Part shown: piece after piece, positions 11,781-34,854 of the stretch | Position numbering within the stretch: the stretch's first letter is position 1 | How the letters are laid out: each line of letters begins with the position of its first letter | DNA from: Christensenella sp. UBA941 | GTDB taxonomy: Bacteria; Bacillota; Clostridia; Christensenellales; UBA941 | DNA: 45,899 nt | Direction of reading: 5' to 3' | Assembly: GCA_002293365.1 (NCBI GenBank) | Contig: DBDD01000179.1 | Span: forward strand, 1-45,899 | Translations under genes and position numbers: made by a program | Notes under the pieces: generated by a model | What the model saw: only the letters and a program-made list of their open reading frames with translations | Told to the model about the DNA's origin: nothing | Databases searched by the model: none

Positions 11781-11783
11781 AGG

Positions 11784-21191: not shown

Positions 21192-22586
21192 CTATAATCT
21201 ATAGATTGCGTTTTTATCGTTGCTGTTATCGTCTTGCCATAGGTCAAGCGGATTGTACTTTCTAGCCGGTTGCAACTCGCTCTCGCGCGGCGTTACCGGC
21301 CTGGACATACAGAAGTATCGAACCTCGTCCGCAACGTGATCCTCCTGCGTTGTGTCTAGGTCTTCCGGGTCCAAGTCATCATGAGTAAGCAACGGGATAG
21401 TGCGAATGAAGGCGCTGCATGTGTTGAATACGTACATCATGGGATAGCCGTTCTCGTCAAACATGAATCTATAATGCATCTGCATCCAGCCGGGAAGGCG
21501 CTTATTATCGCCCTTTTCAAAATATATCCCATATTTCGCGGCAGTATCGGCGATTGATATGCCCCTCGAAGCGTCCCATATTGACGGATCGGCGACGCCC
21601 GTTATATGGTGGCCCTTCAAATACTCATGCTCCTGTTCTATTCGCGCAACTCTATCAAAGATTTGCTCCACCGGCCAACGCACGCCTTCATCCGGCGTAC
21701 CCGTGCAGCCGTAAAGCTCCAATATGCGATAAAACACATTATCGGGATCGACCGCCCACCATCCGACGGAAAACGGCTTATTGTATCCGAAGTCAAAACT
21801 CCTGAACCGCCGCCATGTCTTTTTAGGCGCGAACGGCTCAATAACGTGCGTGAATGTCCGCTCTTTGTACTGAGACGGCTTGTCTGTGAAGTCGCTGAAA
21901 AATTGGCCTTCGAAGATATCCCATTTCCCGTATAACCAAGCGTCGCGTAATTTATGCGGCAGCGCCTCCAATTGCTTGATATATTCCGGCTGCGCCGCCA
22001 TGAGCGCGTGATTATCCTGCACAAACGCTTGTATGAAGGAATAGTCATTGGGGTTTTCGTCTTCTTTGAATGCTTTGTCAATAAAAAGGCGCTTTACCCA
22101 GCCGTGTCCCTTGCCGCCGGGATTGCACGTCAGGTATATGCGCTTTGGATGCTCGTTTACGCCGCGCAGGCAGGCGGCGAACATGCGAAATACGTTTTCA
22201 TCGAACTGCGTAGCCTCGTCAATGCAGATAATATCCGCCTCAGTGCCTTGGTATCGGCCCATATCGCGTTCCGTCTCGCAGTACCGAAACTTAATAACGG
22301 AGCCGTTTGGAAACGTATATTCTTTCCGCGCGTCATTATATTTTGCGATACGATTCCCGAGCATCGCCCGTAGCGGATCGATATGGTTAGCTCTTAGCTC
22401 CGCGTATGTCTTACGGATAATCATAATAATAATTCCAGCGCGGGCAAGGGCTAGAATAACACCCTTCGTTCGTAGCGCCCAGCTCTTTCCGCCGCCGCGC
22501 GCGCCGCCATACGCGACATACTTGTGTGTGTCGGTTAAAAGCATACGCTGTTTTTCGCTCGGGGCCGGTATTTCAAGTGTTCTCAT
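21192..22586 (-). CDS. terL: Terminase large subunit
   Basis: The sequence has a Walker A-like YGGARGGGKSW motif, a CIDEA Walker B-like motif, a C-terminal nuclease-like region, and a 4-nt overlap with the terS end. Confidence 0.85.
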   Translation of the reverse strand: MRTLEIPAPSEKQRMLLTDTHKYVAYGGARGGGKSWALRTKGVILALARAGIIIMIIRKTYAELRANHIDPLRAMLGNRIAKYNDARKEYTFPNGSVIKFRYCETERDMGRYQGTEADIICIDEATQFDENVFRMFAACLRGVNEHPKRIYLTCNPGGKGHGWVKRLFIDKAFKEDENPNDYSFIQAFVQDNHALMAAQPEYIKQLEALPHKLRDAWLYGKWDIFEGQFFSDFTDKPSQYKERTFTHVIEPFAPKKTWRRFRSFDFGYNKPFSVGWWAVDPDNVFYRILELYGCTGTPDEGVRWPVEQIFDRVARIEQEHEYLKGHHITGVADPSIWDASRGISIADTAAKYGIYFEKGDNKRLPGWMQMHYRFMFDENGYPMMYVFNTCSAFIRTIPLLTHDDLDPEDLDTTQEDHVADEVRYFCMSRPVTPRESELQPARKYNPLDLWQDDNSNDKNAIYRL

Positions 22587-23173
22587 ACGTTAAAGCCCTT
22601 CGTATCGCCTTTAAGCATGACGGTTATATCCTTTGCGCCCTCGGAATCCGCGTTCACCTTCTCGCGTTCGAGCGCCAGCCGCTCCGCCGCGATATCCATT
22701 GCCGTTTTCTCTTTGATGCCCGGCAGCTCGTATAAGTCGCGCATCGTGTGAGCCAAGTCTTTAAGTGTGGCGGTAAAGTCCCGTATCGCCTTGGAATCGT
22801 ATTTATCCTCTACGCGACACTCAACGATTGTAACGCCTTTTCCCAAGCCGGTGGTGATAATGTGACGCTTAAACTGCTCGGGATCGTCAAGAGCATCCGT
22901 AAGAACTTCGCCGATTTTGTCAGTTGCCTCCATGAGCTTAAGCAGCTTCTTCGCGTTATCACCGGCGGTTTTTTTCGCAACCTTTTGTACCGTCTTATTG
23001 ACTACGCTGTTGCGATGTTTCTCTCGCCCCTGCGCCCAGCTCTCTTTTCTGGCGTGATCGGCGAGCGTGCGGAAGGGTACGCCCGCTTTCTCGGCCAGTT
23101 TGCGGTAGCTGATATTGGTCGTGATGTATTCCGCCCGTATAGCGTTCCAGTCCGGCACACGTAACACCCCCAT
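22583..23173 (-). CDS. terS: Terminase small subunit (HTH N-terminus)
   Basis: The segment PDWNAIRAEYITTNISYRKLAEKAGVPFRTLADHARKESW is a TerS-type HTH. The listed 234-aa ORF has an implausible Cys-rich extension. Candidate starts are ATG 23173 and GTG 23158; the GTG has the better SD (GGGGGTG). Confidence 0.7.
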   Translation of the reverse strand: MGVLRVPDWNAIRAEYITTNISYRKLAEKAGVPFRTLADHARKESWAQGREKHRNSVVNKTVQKVAKKTAGDNAKKLLKLMEATDKIGEVLTDALDDPEQFKRHIITTGLGKGVTIVECRVEDKYDSKAIRDFTATLKDLAHTMRDLYELPGIKEKTAMDIAAERLALEREKVNADSEGAKDITVMLKGDTKGFNV

Positions 23174-23201
23174 GCAACATGATACAGTGTTGCGGATACA
23201 G

Positions 23202-23213
23202 ATTTCCCCCCGT
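23202..23213 (-). repeat. Partial copy of the late-junction element (ATTTCCCCCCGT)
   Basis: This 12-mer is identical to the one at 23319-23330. Confidence 0.5.
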
Positions 23214-23318
23214 GATACGCACAAAGCCGCGAGGCAATCGCGGCTCCATGCGTCGGAGGGTTCTTTTGAGCGCACCTGGCACATCACGCATTTTTATTAT
23301 CGCATAGGCCCGTTGCGT

Positions 23319-23337
23319 ATTTCCCCCCGTCGTTTTA
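23319..23337 (-). repeat. 18-nt late-junction element, copy 3 (variant ATTTCCCCCCGTCGTTTTA)
   Basis: This copy has one substitution and one extra T relative to copies 1 and 2. It lies in the intergenic region upstream of terS. Confidence 0.7.
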
Positions 23338-23344
23338 CTTTTTT

Positions 23345-23359
23345 ACGTGCCGCCCGGCG
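23345..23359 (-). promoter_or_regulatory. GC-rich box (minus-strand consensus CGCCGGGCGGCACGT), copy in the terS upstream region
   Basis: The plus strand reads acgtgccgcccggcg, the exact 15-mer consensus. Confidence 0.5.
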
Positions 23360-23419
23360 ATGCCGCTATTTATTGCTAGTCTATAGATCTTTTTATGCCG
23401 CTTTGCTCCGCAATATCTT

Positions 23420-23845
23420 TCAACGCGCCTCCCTCGCGGCAAGCGCAGCAGCGGCTTCTTCGCGGGTTCCGAACGCATCTTGTAGCGAGTACCATTCGCC
23501 GCGCACTTGGCCTTTGATAAATATCGTCGGTGGCGATTTGGCGTACACATGGTAGCCGACATTGATCGTTTTTCGGATGCCTCCCTTGACTTTCCAATCA
23601 AGAACGTATATTCGGCCTGCGTGCTTAAAGGGGAGTTTCACCAACAACCCTTGCGCCTCTGCCTCGCGATACGCCGCCAGCTCTGCGACCTTGGCGGGAG
23701 TGAAGCCAGTTTCTTCATAATCAGCGAGTTTTTCTGCGATAAATACCCATTGTTCGCACTCATCACAGGGCTCTTCGTGACTACATTTATCCTGCTTCGC
23801 GCAGTCTATACTACCGTCCGAGTTTCTTCTCGTCAGTCTCTTCAT
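23420..23845 (-). CDS. Hypothetical phage protein (141 aa) immediately upstream of the packaging genes
   Basis: The ORF has AAGGAGGAAG upstream and an N-terminal Cys cluster (CAKQDKCSHEEPCDEC). I did not recognise a family. Confidence 0.5.
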   Translation of the reverse strand: MKRLTRRNSDGSIDCAKQDKCSHEEPCDECEQWVFIAEKLADYEETGFTPAKVAELAAYREAEAQGLLVKLPFKHAGRIYVLDWKVKGGIRKTINVGYHVYAKSPPTIFIKGQVRGEWYSLQDAFGTREEAAAALAAREAR

Positions 23846-23864
23846 ACTTCCTCCTTCTTCTTTT

Positions 23865-23879
23865 CCGTGCCGCCCGTCG
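23865..23879 (-). promoter_or_regulatory. GC-rich start-associated box
   Basis: The plus strand reads ccgtgccgcccgtcg. It lies 19 nt (including the SD) before start 23845. Confidence 0.5.
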
Positions 23880-23909
23880 GATGGAAGCTCATTCGCACGC
23901 CTTCGGGGC

Positions 23910-24329
23910 TCATATTTTTTTTACATATTCGACCGTTGCGGCCAGTTGCTCCGCCATGCAAGCTTTTTCTTCATTCTCGCCGCCCGTCGGTTCCGCCGCC
24001 TTCCGCCATTCGTCATACATGATGATCTCTTTCTCGCTGGCGACGGCGCAGCCGTACTCATACCGCGCACCCATACTATCCTTCCAGTCATTCAGGAAAC
24101 AGGCTATGTCGCACGCTTCAAGCATCGCGCCTGTTATGCGCAGGCATCCTATGTAATCCAGACCGTAGCGGGGTAGAGCCTCCGCAGGATTGAGGACGAG
24201 ATAGCCCGCTTTTTCAAGCTGATGCTTGGCTTCGTAAAATTTCGACCAATACCATTCGTCGCCGGTTATCTTGCCCGAGAGAAATACCGACCGCTGAACG
24301 CCGTTTGTTGCTGCATCAATCATTTTCAT
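23910..24329 (-). CDS. DUF4406-like protein (nucleoside 2-deoxyribosyltransferase-like fold)
   Basis: The segment VFLSGKITGDEWYWSKFYEAKHQLEKAGYLVLNPAE matches the (I/L)SGxxTG...F..A...L...G..V.NP signature of DUF4406. It has an extra C-terminal tail of about 30 aa. Confidence 0.55.
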   Translation of the reverse strand: MKMIDAATNGVQRSVFLSGKITGDEWYWSKFYEAKHQLEKAGYLVLNPAEALPRYGLDYIGCLRITGAMLEACDIACFLNDWKDSMGARYEYGCAVASEKEIIMYDEWRKAAEPTGGENEEKACMAEQLAATVEYVKKI

Positions 24330-24337
24330 TCCTCCCG

Positions 24338-25003
24338 CTAAACAGCCTGTTTTCCTTGAATGCGCACAGGCAGCAAAACAGCGTCACCCGCCTCACACGT
24401 AAAATACAAGGGTTTATTCGGCGATTCGGTCGCAAATGCTTTCGCGTCCGGGAATGCCGTAAGAATATCGATTAGGTAATTTGCTTGCACGGCGGGTAAA
24501 TTACCTCCGAAATCGTAGTTTATGAAACCGCCTATACTCTCGGCTTTTTTGATTCTATAATGCGCTTTCAATTCCGCCATTGTTGGAAGATCGAGAGGAA
24601 CAGTCGCCCCTTCCATGGCTTCATCGAATACCGTCTTCATACCGTCGCTGGGAATACCCTGCGCTGATACCATCTCTATCGGACTGTTTAGCCTTATCGC
24701 CCGGTGTCCGTCACATACGCACTGTTTGCCTTCACAATCGAACGCGCCCCTTAATTTATCCTTTCCGGCGGTTTTGATAATGGCTTTCATAGCCTTGGCG
24801 ACATTCGCCTTGCCGCTTGCTTTATTTGCCTCCATGCGCATATCTTCGCGGAGCGCCGCGCAAAGCTCGATGAGCGGCCCTATATCCATCACACTGCATA
24901 ATCTTTTAGGAAATTCCGTAATCGCGCGGTCGATGTTTACTACGCTTTCGCGGTTACAAAGGTATTCGTAAATTGTTTGGTATATTGTGTTTTTATTAGG
25001 CAT
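24338..25003 (-). CDS. DNA polymerase III beta-clamp-like domain protein (truncated, about 221 aa)
   Basis: I moved the start to ATG 25003, which has AAGGGAGA upstream. KQCVCDGHRAIRL resembles the clamp motif ATDGHRL. The C-terminus NYLIDILTAFPDAKAFATESPNKPLYFTCEAGDAVLLPVRI resembles the clamp C-terminal strand pattern (YL.D.L......P......MP.R). Confidence 0.5.
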   Translation of the reverse strand: MPNKNTIYQTIYEYLCNRESVVNIDRAITEFPKRLCSVMDIGPLIELCAALREDMRMEANKASGKANVAKAMKAIIKTAGKDKLRGAFDCEGKQCVCDGHRAIRLNSPIEMVSAQGIPSDGMKTVFDEAMEGATVPLDLPTMAELKAHYRIKKAESIGGFINYDFGGNLPAVQANYLIDILTAFPDAKAFATESPNKPLYFTCEAGDAVLLPVRIQGKQAV

Positions 25004-26120
25004 TATTTGTTCTCCCTTCAATACGTGCCGCCCGGCGACTGCGTTTCTCAATCTCCGCGATACAAGCCAGAACCACATACGCCCACTGGGGTACAACGGC
25101 ATTCCCCAGTATCTTTAGCCGCTTTGGCCGCTGTTGCTTTACTTTGGTGACGCGCGGCGGCTCGTAGGCGTATTGCTCTTGTTTGCGCCCCGCCGGCCAT
25201 CTGTGCGCGTCCAGCCGATCGGATACCCCATGAGCAATTCCACCCAATCGGGATTCAACATGCCGCCCGCCCCGTAAACATCCGTCCGCAAGCTTCGCGA
25301 TTGCCCGCCGCCGTGGCTGCCCTTTGCGTCCGCTGCGTTTGGCGTCGCGTACATAAGCACGTTCCCCGGAAGAGTGTCGCGCTGTGCTTGTGATGGTGGG
25401 AGAGTCGCATTCTTCTCGTCCTGAGCCGTTGGGGTCGCCCATAGCGCCGCCGTCTGCAAGTCCTCTCCGCCCTGCCGCGTCTCCGTATTCGACGGGCCTT
25501 TCCCGCTTTGTGCGCGCGGCGTCGGCCACATCACCGCATGATGCAGGCTCACCGCATGGCGCTCCGTCGCCGTCTTCCGCCTGATCGAGCCGTTGCGGGC
25601 GTTCATCGTGTCGGGCGTGGGCCACGAGGCAGAGCCGGTCCCTTTTGTGCGGCGCACCAACGTCGGCAGCTCCGTACACACACCATCCAGCATCGTACCC
25701 CAGTTTGGCCAGCTCCCGGAGTATGTCTCCAAAGAGCCGTCCAGCATCAACTGACAATAACCCTGGTACGTTTTCCGCCATAAACCATCTTGGCCTAACA
25801 TCGCGAACGATTCGAAGGCATTCCGGCCAGCGATTACGCGGGTCAGCAGCCCCATTACGCTTTCCAGCAACCGAAGCACATTGACACGGCGGGCTGGCGA
25901 GGATGATATCGATTCCATTGGGATCAATGTTGTTTGCTCGCAATCTATCAAGAGTAACCTCCGTGTCGTGCTTAAATATGGGCTTGCCGGGATGACGCTG
26001 TTCCAAAAGCGCTCGGCATTGCGCGTCGCATTCGCACATAGCGGCGGTTTCGATGCCCGCCCAGCTCGCCGCCAGGGATAGGCCGTCGCAGCCGCCGGAG
26101 TAGAGGGAGAGGGCGATCAT
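24996..26120 (-). CDS. dcm: DNA (cytosine-5) methyltransferase (possibly frame-disrupted in its target-recognition region)
   Basis: The listed 374-aa frame carries motif I YSGGCDG, motif IV PPCQ, motif VI ENVPG, motif VIII APHKRDR and motif X LGNAVVPQ. Residues about 168-305 in this frame are Arg/Gly/Asp-rich low complexity. See the alternate-frame feature. Confidence 0.8.
   Translation of the reverse strand: MIALSLYSGGCDGLSLAASWAGIETAAMCECDAQCRALLEQRHPGKPIFKHDTEVTLDRLRANNIDPNGIDIILASPPCQCASVAGKRNGAADPRNRWPECLRIVRDVRPRWFMAENVPGLLSVDAGRLFGDILRELAKLGYDAGWCVYGAADVGAPHKRDRLCLVAHARHDERPQRLDQAEDGDGAPCGEPASCGDVADAARTKRERPVEYGDAAGRRGLADGGAMGDPNGSGREECDSPTITSTARHSSGERAYVRDAKRSGRKGQPRRRAIAKLADGCLRGGRHVESRLGGIAHGVSDRLDAHRWPAGRKQEQYAYEPPRVTKVKQQRPKRLKILGNAVVPQWAYVVLACIAEIEKRSRRAARIEGRTNNA
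25023..25037 (-). promoter_or_regulatory. GC-rich start-associated box
   Basis: This is the exact 15-mer acgtgccgcccggcg. It lies 19 nt before start 25003, inside the dcm 3' end. Confidence 0.5.
25208..25624 (-). other. Alternate-frame coding signal inside dcm: WPTP-type repeats plus an LNPxWVExLMGxPxGWT motif
   Basis: ORF 25139..25951 lies in a different frame from dcm. It contains four spaced repeats (SWPTPDTMNARNG, MWPTPRAQSGKG, LWATPTAQDEKN, MYATPNAADAKG) and then LNPDWVELLMGYPIGWT. In my recollection these are the hallmarks of the variable region and motif IX of phage-type C5-MTases. Confidence 0.5.
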
Positions 26121-27208
26121 ACCACCATCCTCATCTGATCGTCAGTAATCCCCGCCCTCGCCTTACGGCAATACTCATCGTACAGCTGACGATAACGATA
26201 GCTGTCGCCAAAAACGTTCCACGCGGCTTTTACAACGTTGGGCTCATAGGGCCGTATCTTCTCCAGGTCGCTCACGGCGCTTGCCGATATGGAGCACCCG
26301 CAGCAGCCCGTGCGCATCAAGCCGTAAACCTCGTAAGCGTCCGAATAGCGGATTTTATGATAAGCCTTATACCAACGCTTGTCCGCGTCCGAAACGTAGT
26401 AAAGGGGCCGGAGCCGATACTTTCCGTCGTCCTGCTGAGTAAAGCACAAGGACGTATTATCCTTGCGGGGGACCGACCGCATGCCGCCCTCATCCCGGCG
26501 CTCCCCCGTGATGATCATGTCAAAAGGTATCTGAGCAGTGTGGGCAACTTGCTTTTTGCAATAATCGCAGCATTTCGCGCTGATCGTAAACGGAATAGGA
26601 TTCTCCTTGATGAAATCCAGCATATACGGCGACGAGCCAATAACGAGCTGGATATCCGGGCGCGGCTCCCCGGCGGTATTACAACCGCAAAGGAAATTGA
26701 TTGTCGCTGTGCATTTCGGGTATCGTTCGCCCAGCTCCGCCCGCTTTGCCGCCTTATCCTCCGCGTTCGCGTATTCGTCCGCGATGGAAAGCGGAATATG
26801 CTTCTTCTGCACGCCTTCCAAACCCTTCGACATGATCTTGGATACAAACGGCTGCCCGTGTTTCCGCACGGCCTGGACGATGCCTATCTTCGGCCTATAC
26901 GTATGGATTTTTACGCCGTACAGCTTCGCCATATCGTGAACCTGGCGCTTCGTTGCATCCATCTCCAGGCCCGTGTTGAAAAAGCAGTATTCGACAGGAG
27001 CGAACATCGGAGACGTAGACCGTACCGTCTCAATCAGGTGCATCATGATGTCGCTGTCGCTTCCGCCGGAATAGGAGCATATCGCGTTCGGGTATTCCAC
27101 GAGCCGCCGCGTGATTATGCTTTTTATCGCCTCGAATTTGCGCGGCGCGTCGTAGTCGGCGTATAGAGGCCGGTCGGTGTAGACCTTGCTTTTGAATTCG
27201 GCTCTCAT
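26117..27208 (-). CDS. PP-loop ATP-pyrophosphatase / PAPS-reductase-like protein with a Cys-rich C-terminal part
   Basis: I moved the start to ATG 27208, which overlaps the upstream stop as ATGA. The sequence has the PP-loop CSYSGGSDSD and later Cys clusters (FLCGCN, CCDYCKK, TGCCGCS). It also overlaps the dcm start as ATGA. Confidence 0.6.
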   Translation of the reverse strand: MRAEFKSKVYTDRPLYADYDAPRKFEAIKSIITRRLVEYPNAICSYSGGSDSDIMMHLIETVRSTSPMFAPVEYCFFNTGLEMDATKRQVHDMAKLYGVKIHTYRPKIGIVQAVRKHGQPFVSKIMSKGLEGVQKKHIPLSIADEYANAEDKAAKRAELGERYPKCTATINFLCGCNTAGEPRPDIQLVIGSSPYMLDFIKENPIPFTISAKCCDYCKKQVAHTAQIPFDMIITGERRDEGGMRSVPRKDNTSLCFTQQDDGKYRLRPLYYVSDADKRWYKAYHKIRYSDAYEVYGLMRTGCCGCSISASAVSDLEKIRPYEPNVVKAAWNVFGDSYRYRQLYDEYCRKARAGITDDQMRMVV

Positions 27209-27555
27209 GCGCCCCACTCCAACAAATCCGCCCCCGCCATATCGCCCCAATCCGCCGCCTCGCCCGGCTCCTCGTCCAGCCAATTCCGCCCGAATATCTG
27301 CATGAACTCCTCGCGCGTTCCATGCACACGCTCAAAAGCGCGCTGTCCGTCGCATTTTAGGGCGTAATCTTTTTCGGCGTTATGATGCACGCCCCGCGGG
27401 GGCTCGTTATGCTCGTCGTGCGCAAGGTAGACGAACAGGCCGTATATCTCGCTCCATTTGCGGTTCGCGCCGCCGAAAACGTGATGCTTTTCAAGGCTAT
27501 CCGTCCGGCCCGAGAGGTAACTCTCACGCCCGTTTTGCATGATACTTTTTTTCAT
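27205..27555 (-). CDS. Conserved phage protein, unknown function
   Basis: The 116-aa ORF has GAGG upstream. The pattern HHVFGGANRKWSEIYGLFVYL...GVHHN...LK..GQRAFE...GTREEFMQIFGRNWL recurs in Firmicutes phages as far as I recall. The Zn-ligand positions appear degenerate here. Confidence 0.4.
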   Translation of the reverse strand: MKKSIMQNGRESYLSGRTDSLEKHHVFGGANRKWSEIYGLFVYLAHDEHNEPPRGVHHNAEKDYALKCDGQRAFERVHGTREEFMQIFGRNWLDEEPGEAADWGDMAGADLLEWGA

Positions 27556-27775
27556 CTTCGACCTCGTATTTTCTCAACAGCGCCGCCGCAAAGGGGCAAC
27601 GGGCATAGTGGAAGGTGTTGCAGTTCTGCTCCTGAAAGCGTGATTTATCCTCATGCGTAGTGAAGCGCATCAAGTTATCCGCCCCGGAGATAATTCCCTC
27701 GCACGTTATACTGCAAGGGGTTTCGCAGAGATAGAATGGGCATTTGGCATTCGCAGCGTTCGGATGATTCGCCAT
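27524..27775 (-). CDS. Small Cys-rich phage protein
   Basis: I moved the start to ATG 27775 (MANHPNAANAKCPFYLCETPCSITCEG...C..C). Confidence 0.4.
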   Translation of the reverse strand: MANHPNAANAKCPFYLCETPCSITCEGIISGADNLMRFTTHEDKSRFQEQNCNTFHYARCPFAAALLRKYEVEDEKKYHAKRA

Positions 27776-27776
27776 A

Positions 27777-28670
27777 TCAAACGCCCTTCCGAGCGCGTTT
27801 AGCATCGCGGCGCTTCGTCATCTCTTTGATTGCCTCCTCGGGAGCCATGCCCCCAATTCTGCCGTTCATCACGTCGTTGTAATAGTCAAAGGCTCCTAGT
27901 TCCTCCGGCGTGTCGATCTCCCATATACTCCACTCCTGGAGGATTTTCGCGATGTAGCCGAAGGGCGAGTTTGCCCCGTTTACAGCGGCCTTCTGTATCG
28001 CGTCGGCGATAATCTTGGTTTTATTGCTCATAATGGCCGCGCTGGTAAGCCGCTCCGCCTCGGCGGGCGTAGGGTTGCGCCCGAATGAAGCCAAAAAGGT
28101 GCTTCTGACAATTCGGTCGGCTTCGGCATACTGCGCTTCCCGCAGAGCCTCGACATCCTCGCGCGTGCGCGCGGTATCGTCTACGTCATCTTCTTCATCG
28201 TCTATGGTACGGTACGGTACGGTAGCCGCGTTACTTGCGTTACATCCGTCCGTTACGTAACGCTCTTGTAACGCGTTACCGCCATCCGTTTCGCTGCGGT
28301 TCCTATCCCGAAATTTCTGTACGCGCCGCCGGGTTTGTGACCGTATCGTCTCCCGCTTTGCTAAAAGCATCTCAACATGCTCGTCCCAATCGTGGATAAT
28401 CAAGGCGTCTTCCGCTTGGTCGAGCAATCCGACCACCACAAGGGCGTTGATTAAGCGATCCGGCTTGCCTTTGTAGCGCATGACCTCGGCGATGGTTTTT
28501 CGGTCGCGCATTGCGAATACGCCGGTATCCCTGTGTGTGATTGCCCAGGTCCATAGGCGTATAAGCTTTCCGACGATCAAGTCTTTATCGAGTTGCAACT
28601 CGTCAGACAGGGCTAATACCTTTCGATGATCGGGCAGCGATATACAAACCTCTATCCATGGTTCTGCCAA
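27777..28670 (-). CDS. Replisome organiser / DnaD-domain replication protein
   Basis: The N-terminal region (KLIRLWTWAITH..) resembles a phage replisome organiser. An acidic linker follows. The C-terminal segment TPAEAERL...SPFGYIAKILQEWSIWEIDTPEEL is DnaD/DnaB_2-like. The start is TTG with GAGGGGG upstream. Confidence 0.6.
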   Translation of the reverse strand: MAEPWIEVCISLPDHRKVLALSDELQLDKDLIVGKLIRLWTWAITHRDTGVFAMRDRKTIAEVMRYKGKPDRLINALVVVGLLDQAEDALIIHDWDEHVEMLLAKRETIRSQTRRRVQKFRDRNRSETDGGNALQERYVTDGCNASNAATVPYRTIDDEEDDVDDTARTREDVEALREAQYAEADRIVRSTFLASFGRNPTPAEAERLTSAAIMSNKTKIIADAIQKAAVNGANSPFGYIAKILQEWSIWEIDTPEELGAFDYYNDVMNGRIGGMAPEEAIKEMTKRRDAKRARKGV

Positions 28671-28682
28671 TATATCGCCCCC

Positions 28683-29042
28683 TCACGCTTGCCGCCCCGC
28701 GAGGTAGGTTTCGATGATATGCGCAAGGCCAGCTTGTAAAGTGTCGTAGCCGTCGCGCCGCAAAGCGAGTTGCAACCGCTCTAATTGCGTTTTTGATACC
28801 CGGCACTGTACACGGACAGGCAAGCGGCGTCTGTCTGGTCTGCGCGGCGCTGGGGTCGTTTTTACAAACGCCTCTTCTAGCATCCGTTCGGCTTCATTTA
28901 CAAGGCGAATCCCGTATTCCTCCGGGTGTTCCACCTTGCTATGCAGCGCCTTATCGTACTTAGGGAATTGTTCGCGCAAAACCTCGACGCATTGCTTTGC
29001 CATGAGGCCGCGTTCTTCTCTGAATGCCTTAACGTCCAACAT
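28683..29042 (-). CDS. Hypothetical early protein (119 aa)
   Basis: The ORF has GGAAGGAG upstream. The C-terminal part could be ribbon-helix-helix-like (VSKTQLERLQLALRRDGYDTLQAGLAHIIETYL). Confidence 0.4.
   Translation of the reverse strand: MLDVKAFREERGLMAKQCVEVLREQFPKYDKALHSKVEHPEEYGIRLVNEAERMLEEAFVKTTPAPRRPDRRRLPVRVQCRVSKTQLERLQLALRRDGYDTLQAGLAHIIETYLAGRQA
28687..28701 (-). promoter_or_regulatory. GC-rich start-associated box (variant)
   Basis: The plus strand reads gcttgccgccccgcg. It lies 16 nt before start 28670. Confidence 0.4.
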
Positions 29043-29060
29043 GCGTGTGCGCTCCTTCCT

Positions 29061-29864
29061 TTATAGAATCAACCCCTCCGGGAACTGTTGTATGAAGTCA
29101 TCGCCCATGAGGCTGCGCAAGCTTTCTTTCATGAAAATAGGAATGCTTTCACGGAGGCAGAGATTAAGAACCTCCTCAACCCATTTACGCTCCGGCTGAT
29201 GCTTATCCGCGCCCTGCCCTGTCATAGCTCCGATGATAATCCAGCCCCAAACCTCCAATGCGCTTAGGGTATTGCGGTCTATTGGCGTAAGCATTGGCTC
29301 GATTGATAAGAAGGAATGGCTGTAGTAATCTGACGCGCCCCATTCATACTCCGTGTCTGCTCCCGTTCGCGTTGTCCCATACCAAAAGTTCTCTATATGA
29401 GGCAGAAGGCCGGACTGCTCGTAACGCGATCCGTTTTTAGTCAGGAAGAGATACTTGTGTTGCGGGGCGGCGGAGCAGGCGGCGAAGACTTCCTTTATCC
29501 ATGAATCAGGAACCCATTCGCCGAAAAGGTCACACATGCTCCCGACAAATATGCGCTGTGGCTGCTTTTTGCGGGCGGGTTCGCCCATGCGGTAGCGGTG
29601 TAGGGTTGGCGCGAAACCAAAGGGATATGCGGCTTTGCTGTACCAATTGTCTTTATTCTTGCGTAATTGCGGTTCATCAAGCACAAAAGGAGGTTCAAAT
29701 GCGCTGTCTTTATATTTTGAAATGAACATTCCTTTTTCGATTCCGTATCCGCCTCCCTTGAAACGTTGCGCAATACTGCGCGCGTAACAGTAAGGGCAGT
29801 TGTGTAAGCAGCCGGTGACAGGATTCCAGGACATATCCGCCCAGTCTATTTTCGTTTTATTCAT
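29061..29864 (-). CDS. Phage Gp37/Gp68 family protein (DUF5131), CX3CX2C motif
   Basis: The sequence MNKTKIDWADMSWNPVTGCLHNCPYCYA is the characteristic N-terminus of the family. I preferred ATG 29864 (GGTGAGG upstream) over the listed GTG. Confidence 0.7.
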   Translation of the reverse strand: MNKTKIDWADMSWNPVTGCLHNCPYCYARSIAQRFKGGGYGIEKGMFISKYKDSAFEPPFVLDEPQLRKNKDNWYSKAAYPFGFAPTLHRYRMGEPARKKQPQRIFVGSMCDLFGEWVPDSWIKEVFAACSAAPQHKYLFLTKNGSRYEQSGLLPHIENFWYGTTRTGADTEYEWGASDYYSHSFLSIEPMLTPIDRNTLSALEVWGWIIIGAMTGQGADKHQPERKWVEEVLNLCLRESIPIFMKESLRSLMGDDFIQQFPEGLIL

Positions 29865-30396
29865 GGCCGACCTCACCGTCGAGCCCGAACGCCCATTTAG
29901 AACATTCGGCGCAAGCGCTATGATCCCGCTCCACTTCTACGCAATCCCGACCGTACATGCATGTGTTAGGCAGACGCGCATATTTTCTGACAGCTTGCAA
30001 AAGCAGAGCGTTTTCATCAGCTTGGCGCTCTATCGTATCCAGTAGCTCCGGTAGCGCGTTTCGCGCAGCAACCATGATAATTGCGTCGGGATGGTCGATA
30101 TAATCGTCAAACCCGTCGTGATGCTCCTTGCCGGGATAAGACCTGGCGAGCTTATCGGCGCGTACCATACCGCGACCACGCCTTTCGCCGACGGGCCCGT
30201 CATACTTTTCGTAAACCTGAAACACCGGGCAAGCGTCGCTCATACCCCATCTGGCGAACTGCATCACGTAATACATGCCGCTGTGTGTGGTGACGATCTG
30301 CGCCAATTTACAGCCTGTACGCATATCCCACATCCAAGGACCCGGCGTGGCGGCGCGTTCTTGCTCCCGAAGAGCCTTAAATTCCGTATTATTCAT
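29857..30396 (-). CDS. Ead/Ea22-like early protein
   Basis: An ATPGPW motif lies near the N-terminus and a Cys cluster near the C-terminus. The call is weak. Confidence 0.35.
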   Translation of the reverse strand: MNNTEFKALREQERAATPGPWMWDMRTGCKLAQIVTTHSGMYYVMQFARWGMSDACPVFQVYEKYDGPVGERRGRGMVRADKLARSYPGKEHHDGFDDYIDHPDAIIMVAARNALPELLDTIERQADENALLLQAVRKYARLPNTCMYGRDCVEVERDHSACAECSKWAFGLDGEVGHE

Positions 30397-31150
30397 CGCG
30401 CTTACCCCGCTTGCGAACCTTGATGATACGCGTCTTTACCATCGTGCCGCTCTCGGAAAAAGCGCCTGCGGGCAGCTCATGGATTTCAGCGCCGACTACT
30501 TCGAGCCATGTGCGGAATACGACCGACTTTTTATTCGTTCTGAAAAACGGGCTCTCGCTGACGATTGAGACGAGGATTCCGCCGGGCTCCAACAAGCGGA
30601 AGGCGTGATAGATGTGGTCTATATCCTGTTGTCGGGAAAACGGCGGGTTCATAACGATTCTGGGATAATGCATACTTATTTCAGGGTCGAGACGCAGGAA
30701 GTCGTCACAATATACAGGGTACGGCTTTCCGGCATGCCGTTTCGCCATCTCGAAATTAATTTCAAGGCAAGTAACATTTTTTATGCGCTCGTATATAACG
30801 TCCGCTAAATCACACTCTCCGCACGACGGCTCCAGCACGGCGCGCGCTGCCTCTAGCCTCGCCATGTCGCACATCCGCTCTGCAATTGGGCGCGGCGTAG
30901 GAAAGAACTGAAAAACCTTCTTCGCATCGACTACCTCGCCGGATACGACGAGCGCGTCTAGCAGCTCGGCGGGGTCTTCATCGAACACATGGCCCTTCGC
31001 TTTGCGATTCCACTTGCCGCCGATGCTTTCGAGGCACTTATTAACCGCCTCGTAGGTTTTGCGTTCTAACTGCCCCTCGGGTAGATAGGCGACATTGCCG
31101 TCGGTCCGGCAATTCGATAAAATATTAAGAATATTATCAGGTATTCTCAT
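30389..31150 (-). CDS. SAM-dependent DNA N6-adenine methyltransferase (orphan)
   Basis: The sequence has motif I VLEPSCGECD and motif IV MNPPFS. No adjacent restriction gene is present. Confidence 0.65.
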   Translation of the reverse strand: MRIPDNILNILSNCRTDGNVAYLPEGQLERKTYEAVNKCLESIGGKWNRKAKGHVFDEDPAELLDALVVSGEVVDAKKVFQFFPTPRPIAERMCDMARLEAARAVLEPSCGECDLADVIYERIKNVTCLEINFEMAKRHAGKPYPVYCDDFLRLDPEISMHYPRIVMNPPFSRQQDIDHIYHAFRLLEPGGILVSIVSESPFFRTNKKSVVFRTWLEVVGAEIHELPAGAFSESGTMVKTRIIKVRKRGKRDE

Positions 31151-31175
31151 AGCTCCTCCAAATTTCGGGTTATTA

Positions 31176-31196
31176 CCCGCCCCACAAGGGGGCGGG
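31176..31196 (-). other. GC-rich stem-loop between two early genes
   Basis: CCCGCCCC-5 nt-GGGGCGGG forms a perfect 8-bp stem. It has no U-tract, so terminator function is uncertain. Confidence 0.35.
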
Positions 31197-31207
31197 ATTG
31201 CGCGATA

Positions 31208-31912
31208 TTAGATACAGAAGCACAGGTGCACGCGAATGGCGGTGCCCGCGGCGGAGGAGTAGCGCGGAATGCCGTAGTAGTTGACATAGCAGAAGTTGGA
31301 TGCCGACCCGGCCAGCGAACGCGTCCAATACCAATCGTATTCTCCCGAATCGTTGCGCCGTCTTCTGTCGGCGGATGTAGCGAAAACTTCGTATCTCTCG
31401 CCGTCCTCGAAATTCGACCAGACAGCGGAGCCGAACATTTCACTCTCTGAGGGCAGAAATAGCTTGTCCTCCGTGATTATGGGCTCGCCGTCGCTGGTGT
31501 GCGTGGTTTTTTGAATAGTACGAATGAATTGCTTAAGCTCGTCCGGCATTTCATTGAAATACTCCGAATTAAGCCATTCGCGCAGCTCGGTATCTACCCA
31601 GCCTCTCTCGCACGCGCCGCTGTGCATACGGCGCTCGATGAGCAAGGCTTTAGCCATGACAGTAATTGTGGGCCACGCATAGTCTTCCGCGTCACAATCG
31701 CGGTCAAAGCCAATAATTTCAAGCTCGTAGCCTGCCGCGCTGATGATATCGTGCAGGGCGAAACTGTCGCGCGCCTTCCCGGCCTTGACGATCTCGCTGA
31801 CTTCGGCGATGGTGTATTCGTCGGCGGACTTCGGGCACGCGAATCCGAGCTCCCTTAATTGTGCCTTCGTAAGCTCGGTTTTGTTGCCGTTGATACTGAG
31901 ATAGTTTTCCAT
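31208..31912 (-). CDS. DUF6273-like protein
   Basis: The segments ..WVDTELREWLNSEYFNEMP..DKLFLPSESEMFG..DWYWTRSL...FCYVNYYG....GTAIRVHLCFCI follow the W..s.lR.WLN / LLS..E / WWLRS / G(V/I)RP pattern of that family. Confidence 0.45.
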   Translation of the reverse strand: MENYLSINGNKTELTKAQLRELGFACPKSADEYTIAEVSEIVKAGKARDSFALHDIISAAGYELEIIGFDRDCDAEDYAWPTITVMAKALLIERRMHSGACERGWVDTELREWLNSEYFNEMPDELKQFIRTIQKTTHTSDGEPIITEDKLFLPSESEMFGSAVWSNFEDGERYEVFATSADRRRRNDSGEYDWYWTRSLAGSASNFCYVNYYGIPRYSSAAGTAIRVHLCFCI

Positions 31913-31993
31913 AGATACCCTCCTTAAAATAATTAGTGTTACGCCCGGTTACGCATTTTCGAAATAGATTCAATCACCTCCGAAACATGTTTC

Positions 31994-32200
31994 TCATTGC
32001 AACACCTTTGAGGGTGTGAGCATTTTGTTCGCCTTTATCTGACCGGCGAGCAGCAATACGACATCGGCAAGCAGCGTTTTTTCGCCCTTCTCCATTTTCC
32101 TGTGTAGCTCTACCACTACTGGCGGACAGGCCGCTAGGAGCTCTGATGGTGCAACGGGCATTGCTAGGTGTTCGGTTACGCGCGTGTACAGATCAATCAT
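31994..32200 (-). CDS. Hypothetical small early protein (68 aa)
   Basis: The ORF has AAAGGAGAGG upstream and is preceded by a GC-rich start-associated box. Confidence 0.4.
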   Translation of the reverse strand: MIDLYTRVTEHLAMPVAPSELLAACPPVVVELHRKMEKGEKTLLADVVLLLAGQIKANKMLTPSKVLQ

Positions 32201-32214
32201 GGATACCTCTCCTT

Positions 32215-32229
32215 TCTTGCCGCCCGGCG
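32215..32229 (-). promoter_or_regulatory. GC-rich start-associated box (variant)
   Basis: The plus strand reads tcttgccgcccggcg. It lies 14 nt before start 32200. Confidence 0.45.
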
Positions 32230-32243
32230 CGAGCGATAATGAT

Positions 32244-32441
32244 TTAAGTCGCGTACTGCTCCGCCATCATTGCTTCCTTGATGCGCTTCGCAGCTCTCTC
32301 TGGCGACATGCCAGTCATAACGCGCACAAGCGAATCGCTATATTCGTCATCTGTGACCTCATATGTCCCGATGACCTCGCGTCCGATTTCCTCGCCTGTA
32401 CGCCTGTCAAAAATGACGCGTAGTTTATGCATTTTTTTCAT
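32244..32441 (-). CDS. Hypothetical small early protein (65 aa)
   Basis: I moved the start to ATG 32441 (MKKMHKLRVIF...), which has GGAGG upstream and is preceded by a GC-rich box. Confidence 0.4.
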   Translation of the reverse strand: MKKMHKLRVIFDRRTGEEIGREVIGTYEVTDDEYSDSLVRVMTGMSPERAAKRIKEAMMAEQYAT

Positions 32442-32464
32442 TGCGAGCCTCCATTGTTCATAAA

Positions 32465-32479
32465 ACATGCCGCCCGGCG
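32465..32479 (-). promoter_or_regulatory. GC-rich start-associated box with 5' extension
   Basis: The plus strand reads acatgccgcccggcg. It lies 23 nt before start 32441. On the minus strand it is preceded by AGCGCGAACGCGCAC. Confidence 0.5.
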
Positions 32480-32514
32480 TGCGCGTTCGCGCTCTAAACT
32501 CGAATTGCTGTTCC

Positions 32515-32856
32515 CTAGCATCTTCTCGCAACAATCCTGAACTGGCGAGGCAGTGGCGCGGTATGCTTCTTCCTGTGCGCCCAGCGCGCTAAAGAACGGA
32601 CGTGTATCTTTTTATCCGGTGAAGCCGTAACATCGCCGCGTTCGAGCATACCGTTGATTTTGGCTATGCCGCAGCCGAGAATGCGCGCCGCTTTTGTAAT
32701 AGGAATACATTCGCCATGCTGTTTCACCCAAAGCTCCTCGTCTGGCGCGGGGCCGTTTTCGATAATGTCTACGGCTATCGGCTTAAATGCGTCTATGGCG
32801 TCCATAAGGACGGCGGCGGCGCGTACAATCTCTTCTTGGCTGTATGTCATGGACAT
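32515..32856 (-). CDS. Small HTH-containing early protein
   Basis: The segment PITKAARILGCGIAKINGMLERGDV is HTH-like. GGAGGGAGGAG lies upstream, and the gene is preceded by a GC-rich box. Confidence 0.4.
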   Translation of the reverse strand: MSMTYSQEEIVRAAAVLMDAIDAFKPIAVDIIENGPAPDEELWVKQHGECIPITKAARILGCGIAKINGMLERGDVTASPDKKIHVRSLARWAHRKKHTAPLPRQFRIVARRC

Positions 32857-32880
32857 CGCTGTGGCTCCTCCCTCCGTATA

Positions 32881-32895
32881 ACGTGCCGCCCGGCG
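32881..32895 (-). promoter_or_regulatory. GC-rich start-associated box
   Basis: This is the exact 15-mer acgtgccgcccggcg. It lies 24 nt before start 32856. Confidence 0.5.
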
Positions 32896-32958
32896 GCGAT
32901 GTATCTATGGTCAACGCTTTTCGAAGCGTGGTATACTTTCTGAAAAAGCAGGTGTGCC

Positions 32959-33261
32959 ATGAGCTTCGACGGATTTATTCATAACCCGATAATCAATTTC
33001 CAGAACATAACGGTAAAATGCCCGTCCGACGGGAATGCTCGCAAAATTCAACTTCGCTACGCTACGGATAGTAAAGGGAGCTATGACATCAGCACCGGAG
33101 ACATCGTTTACGGAAAAGTTATTTACGCCCCCTCAAACGGCTGCGACTTCCTTAACGGTTCCGCCGCCTGCGGTGATTGTCTAGCAGCTATCGACCGTCG
33201 TATTCTTGTCGGAGGCCTCACAAAACCCGTACACTTTGACAGCGGTTTCCTTATCAAGTAG
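32959..33261 (+). CDS. Possible opposite-strand small protein (100 aa, 4 Cys) inside the early operon
   Basis: This is the only ORF filling the 285-nt gap in minus-strand coding. AGGTG lies 4 nt before the ATG, and an extended -10 (TGgTATACT, 32929-32937) lies upstream. The 3' 81 nt overlap the convergent gene 33181..33621. Confidence 0.3.
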   Translation: MSFDGFIHNPIINFQNITVKCPSDGNARKIQLRYATDSKGSYDISTGDIVYGKVIYAPSNGCDFLNGSAACGDCLAAIDRRILVGGLTKPVHFDSGFLIK

Positions 33262-33621
33262 CCCAAGTTCGCGGGCCGCTGCCGCGAGAGCTCTTTCGTA
33301 GATAGGTGCTTCCAAACGGCTTATGTTGATCTCGCCGCCGTGATAGTGGTAGCGCCTTAGCTGTAGCCGTAAATCGGTTAAGACACTTTCTCCATAAGAT
33401 GTGAGCTTCACTCGCGGCGCTTTTCTCGGAAGATAAAACTTGACGCCAACCGTCCATTGCTCTGGGCGCGCCTCAAATGCCGGATAGTGAGAGAGAATAA
33501 CAGCGTTCTCTTCTATAAGGCAGGACAGTTTCATGGTCAGCTCATGCGCCGCCTCCGATATTTCCTTCTCCGTAGGCTTGTGGCCGAAGCTAATATAGTC
33601 GCCGACGATATCAAATTTCAT
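33181..33621 (-). CDS. Hypothetical early protein (146 aa), second gene of the cro-side operon
   Basis: The ORF has AAGGAGGAAAG upstream and is preceded by a GC-rich box. Confidence 0.45.
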   Translation of the reverse strand: MKFDIVGDYISFGHKPTEKEISEAAHELTMKLSCLIEENAVILSHYPAFEARPEQWTVGVKFYLPRKAPRVKLTSYGESVLTDLRLQLRRYHYHGGEINISRLEAPIYERALAAAARELGLLDKETAVKVYGFCEASDKNTTVDSC

Positions 33622-33643
33622 AAACTTTCCTCCTTCTTATACA

Positions 33644-33658
33644 ACGTGCCGCCCGGTG
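33644..33658 (-). promoter_or_regulatory. GC-rich start-associated box with 5' extension
   Basis: The plus strand reads acgtgccgcccggtg. It lies 22 nt before start 33621. On the minus strand it is preceded by AGCGCAGACGCGCAC. Confidence 0.5.
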
Positions 33659-33686
33659 TGCGCGTCTGCGCTCCGGGTGTGCAATC

Positions 33687-33878
33687 CTATGCGTTTTCGA
33701 AAAATCGGGTCCAGTCGAATTCAAGAACTGATGCTAACTTCTGCGCTACTTCGGGTGAAGGTCGGCGCGCGCCGGATTCATATTTGCCTATAGCCGTAAT
33801 GTCTACATCTACCTTCTTCGCTAATACAGCCTGTGTTAGCTGTTTTTGCTCTCTTAGTGATCTCAGCCATTGTCTCAT
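33687..33878 (-). CDS. Cro-like XRE-family HTH regulator
   Basis: I moved the start to ATG 33878 (MRQWLRSLREQKQLTQAVLAKKVDVDITAIGKYESGARRPS), which has GGAGGA upstream. The gene is divergent from the cI-like gene. Confidence 0.7.
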   Translation of the reverse strand: MRQWLRSLREQKQLTQAVLAKKVDVDITAIGKYESGARRPSPEVAQKLASVLEFDWTRFFENA

Positions 33879-33900
33879 GTAAAGTCCTCCCGACACATAC

Positions 33901-33915
33901 TAGACGTACTGTCTA
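33901..33915. promoter_or_regulatory. Operator O1 (TAGAC-N5-GTCTA)
   Basis: The sequence tagacgtactgtcta lies just downstream of the cro-side -10. Confidence 0.7.
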
Positions 33916-33920
33916 TGTCG

Positions 33921-33949
33921 ATTATATAGACGTATTGTCTAGTTGTCAA
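33921..33949 (-). promoter_or_regulatory. Early (cro-side) sigma-A-type promoter
   Basis: The minus strand reads TTGACA (33949-33944), then 17 nt, then TATAAT (33926-33921). Both hexamers are perfect consensus. Confidence 0.7.
33927..33941. promoter_or_regulatory. Operator O2 (TAGAC-N5-GTCTA)
   Basis: The sequence tagacgtattgtcta fills the spacer of the cro-side promoter. Confidence 0.7.
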
Positions 33950-33967
33950 GCATAAAATAAAATTATC

Positions 33968-33996
33968 TTGCCAAAACTAGACTTTTAGTCTATAGT
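33968..33996 (+). promoter_or_regulatory. Repressor (cI-side) sigma-A-type promoter
   Basis: The plus strand reads TTGCCA (33968-33973), then 17 nt, then TATAGT (33991-33996). Confidence 0.6.
33978..33992. promoter_or_regulatory. Operator O3 (TAGAC-N5-GTCTA)
   Basis: The sequence tagacttttagtcta lies in the spacer of the cI-side promoter. Confidence 0.7.
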
Positions 33997-34003
33997 GCTT
34001 GTA

Positions 34004-34018
34004 TAGACAATATGTCTA
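34004..34018. promoter_or_regulatory. Operator O4 (TAGAC-N5-GTCTA)
   Basis: The sequence tagacaatatgtcta lies just downstream of the cI-side -10. Confidence 0.7.
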
Positions 34019-34043
34019 GTTTATTATAGATTTGGTGATAAAA

Positions 34044-34376
34044 ATGATTGGAAAGCGCTTGGAAGATGCTCGCGAAAGCAAGGGCTATAGCAGGAAAGAA
34101 GTCGCGAAGTATCTGAATATCCATGAATCGACATACGGTAAATATGAGCTGGGGCATAGAAAGCCCGACGCTGAAACAATTTTAGCCTTAGCGAATTATT
34201 ACGGCGTATCTGTTGATTCATTGCTCGGCAGAGAAGTCGAGCCCGCCGCCAAAGAAGACGACGGGCTGACGGATAAAGGCCGGGAGCTGGTTGAAATCGC
34301 TAAGATTCTGGACGAATCGGGTAAAGATGTTCTGATTGCTGCTGGTCGCGCCTTAATTGACGGGCAAGCAAAATAA
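34044..34376 (+). CDS. CI-like XRE-family HTH repressor
   Basis: I preferred ATG 34044 (GGTGA upstream) over the listed TTG 34032. The sequence is MIGKRLEDARESKGYSRKEVAKYLNIHESTYGKYELGHRKPDAETILALANYYGVSVDSLLG. Confidence 0.75.
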   Translation: MIGKRLEDARESKGYSRKEVAKYLNIHESTYGKYELGHRKPDAETILALANYYGVSVDSLLGREVEPAAKEDDGLTDKGRELVEIAKILDESGKDVLIAAGRALIDGQAK

Positions 34377-34656
34377 GCTCCTCTATATCTGAATCGGTCA
34401 ATGCTTGGAGTGTCTTAATTAGAGTTTCGAGCTTGGGGTCGTAGTCATTAGTATCCACGATTATCAAACTCCTTCTGTATTAAGATCACTATCGATAGTT
34501 TTACTATTATAGCATATGTTGTCGAAAAATGAGGTATATGCTGCAATCCATTTCTAAAACTTGGGCTCGCGCCGCCCGTATGTACTCCGACCTATCATGA
34601 GATATGACATTATAGAAGCTGAATTATGCGAAAGATAGCGAAGGGATCATATTAAA

Positions 34657-34854
34657 GTGAAGTATGTTACCAAGATATTACTTACAGTGCTATGCCTCTT
34701 ATCTCCGTCAATAATCATGAGCATAATACGAGTTAATGGCTTCGAGGTTTACGCCGCCGTAACATTTCATCTATGGTTACCGATGTTTTTTCTTCTTCGC
34801 CGGATTTGGCGAAAAAATAAATGTACAAGTGATAGCGGAAGGGATTATTCGTAA
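34657..34854 (+). CDS. Small hydrophobic membrane protein (moron gene 1)
   Basis: The 65-aa ORF has a GTG start and two hydrophobic segments. Its stop overlaps the next start (TAATG). The DNA is AT-rich. Confidence 0.4.
   Translation: MKYVTKILLTVLCLLSPSIIMSIIRVNGFEVYAAVTFHLWLPMFFLLRRIWRKNKCTSDSGRDYS

Follow-up and report, generated by a model that had tools for sequence, protein, structure and literature searches.

The 45,899 nucleotides (nt) of contig DBDD01000179.1 (assembly GCA_002293365.1, Christensenella sp. UBA941), hereafter the window, comprise a prophage with flanking DNA, and on the coding strand of the prophage's early region a GC-rich 15-nt box recurs eight times. Seven of the eight copies lie directly 5' of the Shine Dalgarno (SD) sequence of a gene, whether that position is intergenic or within the end of the preceding gene, as an earlier note on this DNA, made from its letters alone, had claimed. 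Within the single early operon, the boxes mark the cistron that comes first in each translationally uncoupled block. The reading we favour, with a probability of roughly 0.4, is that the box is a lineage-specific and strand-specific cis element on the translation-initiation region of the mRNA which is read by a putative phage-specific factor.

The box, CGCCGGGCGGCACGT, has seven copies with no more than two mismatches, every one of them on the minus (coding) strand, against an expectation of 0.27 and a maximum of 2 in 100 shuffles. Three are exact (23345, 25023 and 32881), in agreement with the three identical 15-mers reported earlier, two have one mismatch (32465 and 33644) and two have two (23865 and 32215). 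The eighth copy, at 28687, has three, so the eight positions listed in the earlier note stand and its statement that all the non-identical copies have just one or two mismatches does not. All eight are on the coding strand within 23345-33658. In the order in which they would be transcribed, the copies and the features that bear on them are as follows (aa, amino acids; ORF, open reading frame).

33659-33672, minus strand: 5' extension AGCGCAGACGCGCA, hairpin GCGC-AGAC-GCGC, abutting the box at 33644
33644-33658, minus strand: box CACCGGGCGGCACGT, 1 mismatch, ending 22 nt before ATG 33621 (146-aa ORFan, first gene after the cro-like gene)
32881-32895, minus strand: exact box, ending 24 nt before ATG 32856 (113-aa helix-turn-helix (HTH)-like protein)
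32480-32493, minus strand: 5' extension AGCGCGAACGCGCA, hairpin GCGC-GAAC-GCGC, abutting the box at 32465
32465-32479, minus strand: box CGCCGGGCGGCATGT, 1 mismatch, ending 23 nt before ATG 32441 (65-aa ORFan)
32215-32229, minus strand: box CGCCGGGCGGCAAGA, 2 mismatches, ending 14 nt before ATG 32200 (68 aa), with the SD 1 nt after the box
31936-31950, minus strand: doubtful degenerate copy AACCGGGCGTAACAC, matching at 9/15 positions and scoring <9.7 bits, ending 23 nt before ATG 31912 (DUF6273)
31176-31196, minus strand: hairpin CCCGCCCC-(C)TTGT-GGGGCGGG in a box-less gap, ~25 nt before ATG 31150, its 3' arm holding GGGCGG
28687-28701, minus strand: box CGCGGGGCGGCAAGC, 3 mismatches, ending 16 nt before TTG 28670 (DnaD-like), within the final codons (AGRQA*) of the 119-aa gene
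25023-25037, minus strand: exact box, ending 19 nt before ATG 25003 (221-aa ORFan), in the C-terminal tail of the C5 methylase
23865-23879, minus strand: box CGACGGGCGGCACGG, 2 mismatches, ending 19 nt before ATG 23845 (141-aa ORFan)
23345-23359, minus strand: exact copy without an adjacent start; the 141-aa gene stops 60 nt upstream and terS starts 186 nt downstream, at 23158

At all seven start-associated copies a strong SD begins 1-12 nt after the box, and the distance from box end to start codon runs from 14 to 24 nt. The zone so defined takes up 3.4% of positions and holds 7/8 copies (binomial P = 4e-10; 0/200,000 permutations). Each early intergenic gap of more than 40 nt has a box, though the degenerate copy near 31936 that the earlier note had proposed for one of them is doubtful, and the exception is the gap before 31150 with its GC hairpin. 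Junctions where stop and start overlap, and translation is coupled, have no box. The two copies that lie within ORFs are instructive. Homologues of the 119-aa protein end in ...YL and pass directly to the SD, and the window adds the box-encoded AGRQA* in between; similarly the homology of the C5 methylase to other methylases stops at residue 362, exactly where the box starts. Since both of these boxes sit in tails that homologues lack, what is required is a place just 5' of the next SD rather than avoidance of coding sequence. The copy upstream of terS noted earlier is indeed present but is not start-associated, the terS start in public assemblies being 186 nt downstream; it falls in a spacer of 260 nt that separates the 141-aa gene from terS, at the early/late boundary.

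Conservation ends sharply at the edges of the box, the flanking genes are unrelated and most copies are intergenic. Nothing is conserved upstream apart from a 12-14-nt GC hairpin at 2/8 copies, which is the 5' extension that the earlier note had seen to be common to 32465 and 33644 and which is now recognizable as a 4-bp GC hairpin (GCGC-GAAC/AGAC-GCGC). Within the box GGGCGGCA is an invariant, asymmetric core, with substitutions confined to positions 2-4, 13 and 15. The whole can be written as a pseudo-palindrome, GCCG-GG-CGGC, of which only the right half is invariant, the changes falling in the left arm and at the 3' end. A natural variant of the phage, 99% identical (GCA_003324335.1 QMCE01228488.1), has a 52-nt deletion corresponding to window 32897-32948. 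Lost with it are the hairpin ACGCTT-CGAA-AAGCGT, the promoter predicted for an antisense ORF and 4-5 nt at the 5' end of the box (CGCC); GGGCGGCACGT and the SD are retained, the former still in place before the latter. The asymmetric constraint, together with the retention of GGGCGGCACGT in this variant, argues against recognition by a symmetric dimer. The antisense ORF itself (100 aa, window 32959-33261, plus strand) lies in the largest early intergenic gap and is a gene call in public assemblies; with its TG-extended promoter-like site at 32908-32937 it may, from sequence, be a moron expressed in lysogeny.

A weight matrix derived from the eight copies holds 17.8 bits of information and gives those copies scores of 19-25 bits. 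The next match, at 9735-9749 within the 3226-aa late ORF, has three mismatches and scores 19.5 bits, and it is the sole strong box-like site outside the early region; the remainder score at most 17 bits, an in-gene variant at 23975 scoring 14.6. Hence the earlier statement that the box is missing from the late module apart from the copy before terS holds for matches with up to two mismatches and has to accommodate the three-mismatch copy at 9735. Weak matrix matches exceed those in shuffles (25 versus ~3), and over the whole window GGGCGG is strongly strand-biased, with 55 occurrences on the minus strand versus 11 on the plus, probably an effect of codon usage and above what GC skew alone predicts.

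The setting is that of a prophage, for which three features of the lysogeny region provide orientation.

36081-37313, plus strand: tyrosine integrase, adjoining tRNA-Val (37358-37433)
34032-34376, plus strand: CI-like HTH repressor, facing the minus-strand cro-like gene
33901-34018: four CI/Cro-type palindromic operators TAGAC-N5-GTCTA, around the early promoter, between the CI-like and cro-like genes

Some 18 early genes on the minus strand form a single operon served by one repressor-controlled promoter, TTGACA-17-TATAAT at 33949-33921 on the minus strand between the CI-like and cro-like genes, which is the operon's sole strong sigma-70-type promoter. All four TAGAC-N5-GTCTA palindromes are perfect and they flank the divergent promoters; they are likely, on sequence, to be CI/Cro operators. 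An isolated 10-mer, CTATAGACTA, turns up again at 23377-23386, just upstream of the box near terS. Among the early products are ORFans of 146, 65, 68, 221 and 141 aa, the HTH-like 113-aa protein, and others with DUF6273, methyltransferase-like, DUF5131, ribbon-helix-helix (RHH)-like (119 aa), DnaD-like, PAPS-reductase-family, C5 cytosine methylase and DUF4406 assignments. The HTH-like and RHH-like labels of the 113-aa and 119-aa proteins are read from sequence, with no Pfam or NCBIfam match. In homologue searches the 141-aa protein proved an ORFan and the 113-aa protein had a single homologue; the 146-aa and 141-aa ORFans, when modelled with AlphaFold, gave a pLDDT (predicted local distance difference test) of ~40 and unusable models. 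Downstream of the early genes the operon runs on into terS, terL, portal, capsid and tail genes, including that for the 3226-aa polyvalent protein. Contigs identical to the window come from termite-gut metagenomes, and other assemblies of the same phage are 99.99-100% identical to it.

Several of these genes merit a word of their own. The polyvalent protein, encoded in the tail/late module (window 2100-11780, minus strand), carries domains of the PBECR3 nuclease and LPD3 types. A Cys-rich motif, C-x5-C-x5/9-C-x2-C-x2-W, is common to the N-terminus of the 141-aa ORFan (23420-23845, minus strand) and the C-terminus of a 179-aa protein (29857-30396, minus strand); it has no family match and may, judging by its residues, be a zinc-binding module. 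The PAPS-reductase-family protein (26117-27208, minus strand) is ~75-80% identical to thousands of proteins from otherwise unrelated phages and metagenome-assembled genomes of several phyla, a conservation unusually high for a mobile phage gene.

How might the box work? Its strand specificity, its proximity to the SD, its restriction to independently initiated cistrons and the lack of promoter features together point to its being read either on the transcript or, while transcription is under way, on the non-template strand. In support, one strong promoter serves the whole operon with no conserved element upstream of the boxes, the box is unrelated to the CI/Cro operators and there is no box within 33700-34700. 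The box would act on the early polycistronic mRNA, in the translation-initiation region of those cistrons that must recruit ribosomes independently. There a phage factor, protein or RNA, would recognize the single-stranded box beside the SD and co-regulate 30S loading or local mRNA fate at all box-bearing starts together, in the manner of RegA of T4. In a sub-variant the box has a purely cis role, serving as a standby site or an enhancer. For the copy before terS, which has no start, the target would be the leader of the late operon.

A number of observations count against this proposal or fail to lend it weight. Sequence alone fits recognition at the level of RNA and of DNA alike, and the exact copy at 23345, with no start codon within 186 nt, means that the box is not strictly an element of start regions. 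There is no conserved fold across the box regions, which are not more structured than shuffled controls (z-scores -1.1 to +1.6), no Rfam match in 22500-34600 either at the gathering score or at E up to 1, and no consistent intramolecular pairing partner for any box. No binding factor was found; in Pfam and PHROGs scans the candidate early proteins are ORFans, and structure models of them are unusable. The one moderately close relative (71% aa identity), considered below, has no box at the orthologous junction, and none either upstream or downstream of its homologue of the 113-aa protein. Further, the other copies of the phage are so close to 100% identical that their comparison gives no sign of selection. 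Two pairings were considered and discarded: a long-range helix, predicted to join the box near terS to the start of terS, which is not among the best duplex partners, and a 7-nt complementarity of the box to the universal 16S segment 1399-1405, a segment that is buried and on the wrong side of the SD.

Is the box instead a site on DNA? The chief rival, an unlikely explanation yet one to be taken seriously, is that it is a directional operator resembling a stoperator, with a monomeric or two-domain phage protein bound to the asymmetric 15-bp duplex blocking or modulating elongating RNA polymerase at block boundaries, the early/late one among them, so as to order expression in time or to silence it. 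A 15-bp, asymmetric, information-rich (17.8 bits) site with all copies facing transcription is what would be expected of it, since stoperators are likewise (PMC9283540), and the copies are at block boundaries with the start-less one heading the late operon; besides several ORFans, the early region also encodes proteins that on a reading of their sequence are HTH-like (113 aa) and RHH-like (119 aa). However, homologues of both of these occur in box-less phages, the lysogeny module has no DNA-binding candidate besides CI, and, with no box at the early promoter and palindromic TAGAC-N5-GTCTA operators that differ from it, the defining link to the repressor is missing. Nor does a roadblock need to be within 1-12 nt of an SD, yet two copies have been forced into ORF tails. 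Promoters are a much poorer prospect. T4 late and phiC31 early promoters provide a precedent for multiple near-identical phage-specific promoters, and here each block would get its own short-leader transcript from an RNA polymerase or sigma factor that the phage either modifies or encodes. The box does hold GGCACG, the core of the -24 element for sigma-54, in 5 copies, but this is never followed by a TTGC -12 element at the required N4 spacing; the copy at 25023 reads GAAAC-N17-CGTA, reminiscent of ECF (extracytoplasmic function) sigma factors, but nothing is conserved 16-18 nt upstream of the copies generally, AAC being there in only 2-3/8. At 32215 the SD follows the box by 1 nt, so that transcription begun downstream would have its start site inside the SD and yield an mRNA without it. 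Neither a sigma factor nor an RNA polymerase came up in scans with Pfam, PHROGs and NCBIfam, and the DxDGD motif is missing from the 3226-aa protein. Sigma-70, sigma-54, ECF-like and single-subunit polymerase readings were all rejected on geometry and on the lack of upstream elements and of a polymerase, so we consider internal promoters very improbable.

The earlier note had left the function of the box open among several options, of which a promoter is thus disfavoured (no upstream element, the geometry at 32215, no phage polymerase) and a module junction gains little. In the latter the boxes would be short repeats serving as substrates for relaxed or short-homology recombination, by which box-SD-gene cassettes are gained, lost and swapped. 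They do flank ORFans and block boundaries, the natural deletion described above has an endpoint inside a box, and in the stretch flanked by the 113-aa and 253-aa genes, three genes preceded by a box or degenerate box here stand in place of one unrelated gene between their homologues in the relative (L177). Against this, the 'empty' junctions of L177 are without a box, a second box-bearing phage was not encountered in IMG/VR, 56 prophage loci, 80 PAPS-reductase loci or JGI metagenomes, no recombinase was detected by Pfam or PHROGs, and neutral scars would not hold a sharp 15-nt conservation in one orientation at a fixed place relative to the SD; we regard such linkers as improbable. Least credible of all, and only barely to be entertained, is that the boxes have no function, being leftovers of start-region cassettes that were duplicated, or a side effect of GC-rich codon usage. 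The commonness and strand bias of GGGCGG (55 versus 11) and the excess of weak matrix matches (25 versus ~3) do indicate that box-like fragments arise easily in coding DNA, but seven full 15-mers against 0.27 expected, with sharp edges, unrelated flanking genes, a mostly intergenic location and a placement of P ~4e-10, are not so readily accounted for.

Known systems provide perspective. The nearest precedent named in the earlier note, the start-associated sequences (SAS), together with the extended ones (ESAS), of Cluster K mycobacteriophages, is a reasonable analogy, with the box standing apart in sequence, SD and distance. SAS were reported in 2011 and their function is still unexplained (PMC3203893; PMC11373665; PMC12699233). 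The 13-bp SAS consensus, GGGATAGGAGCCC (with up to two deviations), includes an AGGAG SD core and is 3-9 bp from the start (PMC3203893), whereas the box is unrelated in sequence, has a separate SD 1-12 nt downstream and is 14-24 nt from the start. Both are short, asymmetric, in a single orientation, before the starts of unrelated genes, with non-structural genes only, and virtually nowhere else; each has a subset with an upstream extension, and neither has an explained function. SAS copies number ~10-20, the box copies here eight. SAS are conserved across a phage cluster whereas the box has been met in a single lineage, with L177 lacking it, and the host of the former is actinobacterial, that of the latter a Bacillota-type termite-gut bacterium. 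ESAS have a pair of imperfect 17-bp inverted repeats over ~50 bp with a SigA-like promoter, in contrast to the 12-14-nt GC hairpin, at 2/8 copies and with no promoter, found here. The stoperators of Cluster A phages (L5 gp71) are asymmetric 13-15-bp sites in many copies, oriented with transcription, mostly in short intergenic spaces and in both genome arms (PMC9283540). The box is likewise asymmetric and so oriented, though limited to the early operon and the early/late boundary and, unlike stoperators, tightly placed relative to the SD. Stoperators share the consensus of the early-promoter operator and are bound by the immunity repressor, whereas the box is unrelated to the TAGAC-N5-GTCTA operators.

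At the level of RNA, RegA of T4 is a single phage factor that co-regulates the translation of many early mRNAs by recognizing, in their initiation regions, an RNA motif that is linear and without structure. The sites of RegA overlap the AUG and are degenerate and AU-rich, whereas the box is rich in GC, hardly varies and stands upstream of the SD; no protein like RegA was detected. The nut sites of lambda and the ops element of RfaH work from the sense strand while long operons are being transcribed, but they are present once or twice per operon, in leaders, and not ahead of 7-8 individual gene starts as the box is. The first hairpin plus box, directly after the cro-like gene, is placed as nutR is, but nut consists of boxA and a boxB hairpin, one per early operon, whereas here there are eight copies with a hairpin at two, 5' of a linear box, and boxA, unlike this box, is not GC-rich. 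No N-like arginine-rich protein is recognizable among the proteins of the window. The ops element, GGCGGTAGnnTG, sits on the non-template strand of a leader and goes with a NusG paralogue; to it there is partial likeness (GGCGG-C-A-CGT), but the critical T6 of ops is C in the box, and there is no NusG or KOW domain among the ORFs scanned.

The only relative that is not identical is contig QMCE01021367 (L177), whose proteins have 71% and 70% aa identity to the 113-aa and 253-aa proteins respectively. Homology of the 68-aa protein to a 90-aa protein of L177 is unsupported (E = 0.55), leaving just one truly orthologous junction. Lack of the box at such junctions in related phages had been named at the outset as something that would tell against it, and this is the situation in L177; it makes the box lineage-specific without thereby showing it to be non-functional. 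Pattern scans of IMG/VR gave only single chance matches in GC-rich contigs, megablast against GenBank phages gave nothing, and TerL relatives at 58% identity have no box. There was no start-associated box in 56 Clostridia prophage loci found via DUF5131 together with 80 loci of the PAPS-reductase gene, ~2 Mb in all; with the same ~2 Mb as a proxy for host background, matches with up to two mismatches are rare and none is SD-proximal. When JGI metagenomes were scanned with a 113-aa-protein profile, the one contig recovered was already known, and a stricter de novo screen with 8-mers flagged only this window among ~190 loci. The lineage is rare and its sampling very thin, and the box is seen in one lineage only.

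Two unrelated, uncultivated phages have the same box-SD layout with different sequences. The metagenomic phage-like locus JAZDFB010000024.1 (L230) has its own box, CAGATTACRCAGA, often in tandem, before the SD: on the plus strand at ~2956-12480, tandem 9-mers CAGATTACR (for instance CCACAGATTACACAGATTACGCAGAT) precede at least seven mostly unrelated genes, their ends 0-2 nt before the SD, and the motif occurs 14 times on the plus strand and 4 times on the minus. IMGVR_UViG_3300046003_003364 (L151) has GCGCCGCTTA 3-5 nt before the SD of four consecutive small genes on the minus strand (plus coordinates ~3477-4290), partly duplicated as GCGCCGCCCGCGCCGCTTA; this box is GC-rich in a contig of 53% GC. 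A different arrangement was met in JAEZJP010000206.1, where at 959-1001, 2896-2970 and 9449-9541 an intergenic GACCTCCTWCCGCCGCCTGCGGGCGGCACC is followed by a hairpin, CCTCCCTC-NAG-AGGGAGG, in which an anti-SD-like arm pairs with an SD-like arm and changes in the arms preserve pairing; it has no Rfam match.

What the prophage adds, then, is an independent start-associated repeat, of unrelated sequence and in a Bacillota-type gut prophage, accompanied by two further examples (L230 and L151) that are again unrelated in sequence, which suggests that the box-SD-start layout is general rather than peculiar to one phage cluster. By analogy the box is perhaps best seen as a variant of a known but unexplained kind, with the two analogues hinting at a broader class. 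As it is cleanly apart from the SD, reporters could separate the function of the box from ribosome binding, something difficult for SAS. A trans factor, if there is one, would represent a master regulator of a new type, phage-specific and post-transcriptional (or else directional and transcriptional), and possibly a portable, orthogonal control part. A more adventurous thought, which we hold to be doubtful, is that SD-proximal boxes of independently initiated early cistrons might be a widespread, unrecognized regulatory layer in tailed phages, each type of box being read on the mRNA by a fast-evolving phage factor, with the SAS of Cluster K perhaps a fourth version beside those of this phage, L230 and L151. 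Were that so, such a factor would switch a whole early programme on or off at translation, a phage-specific 'translational immunity'.

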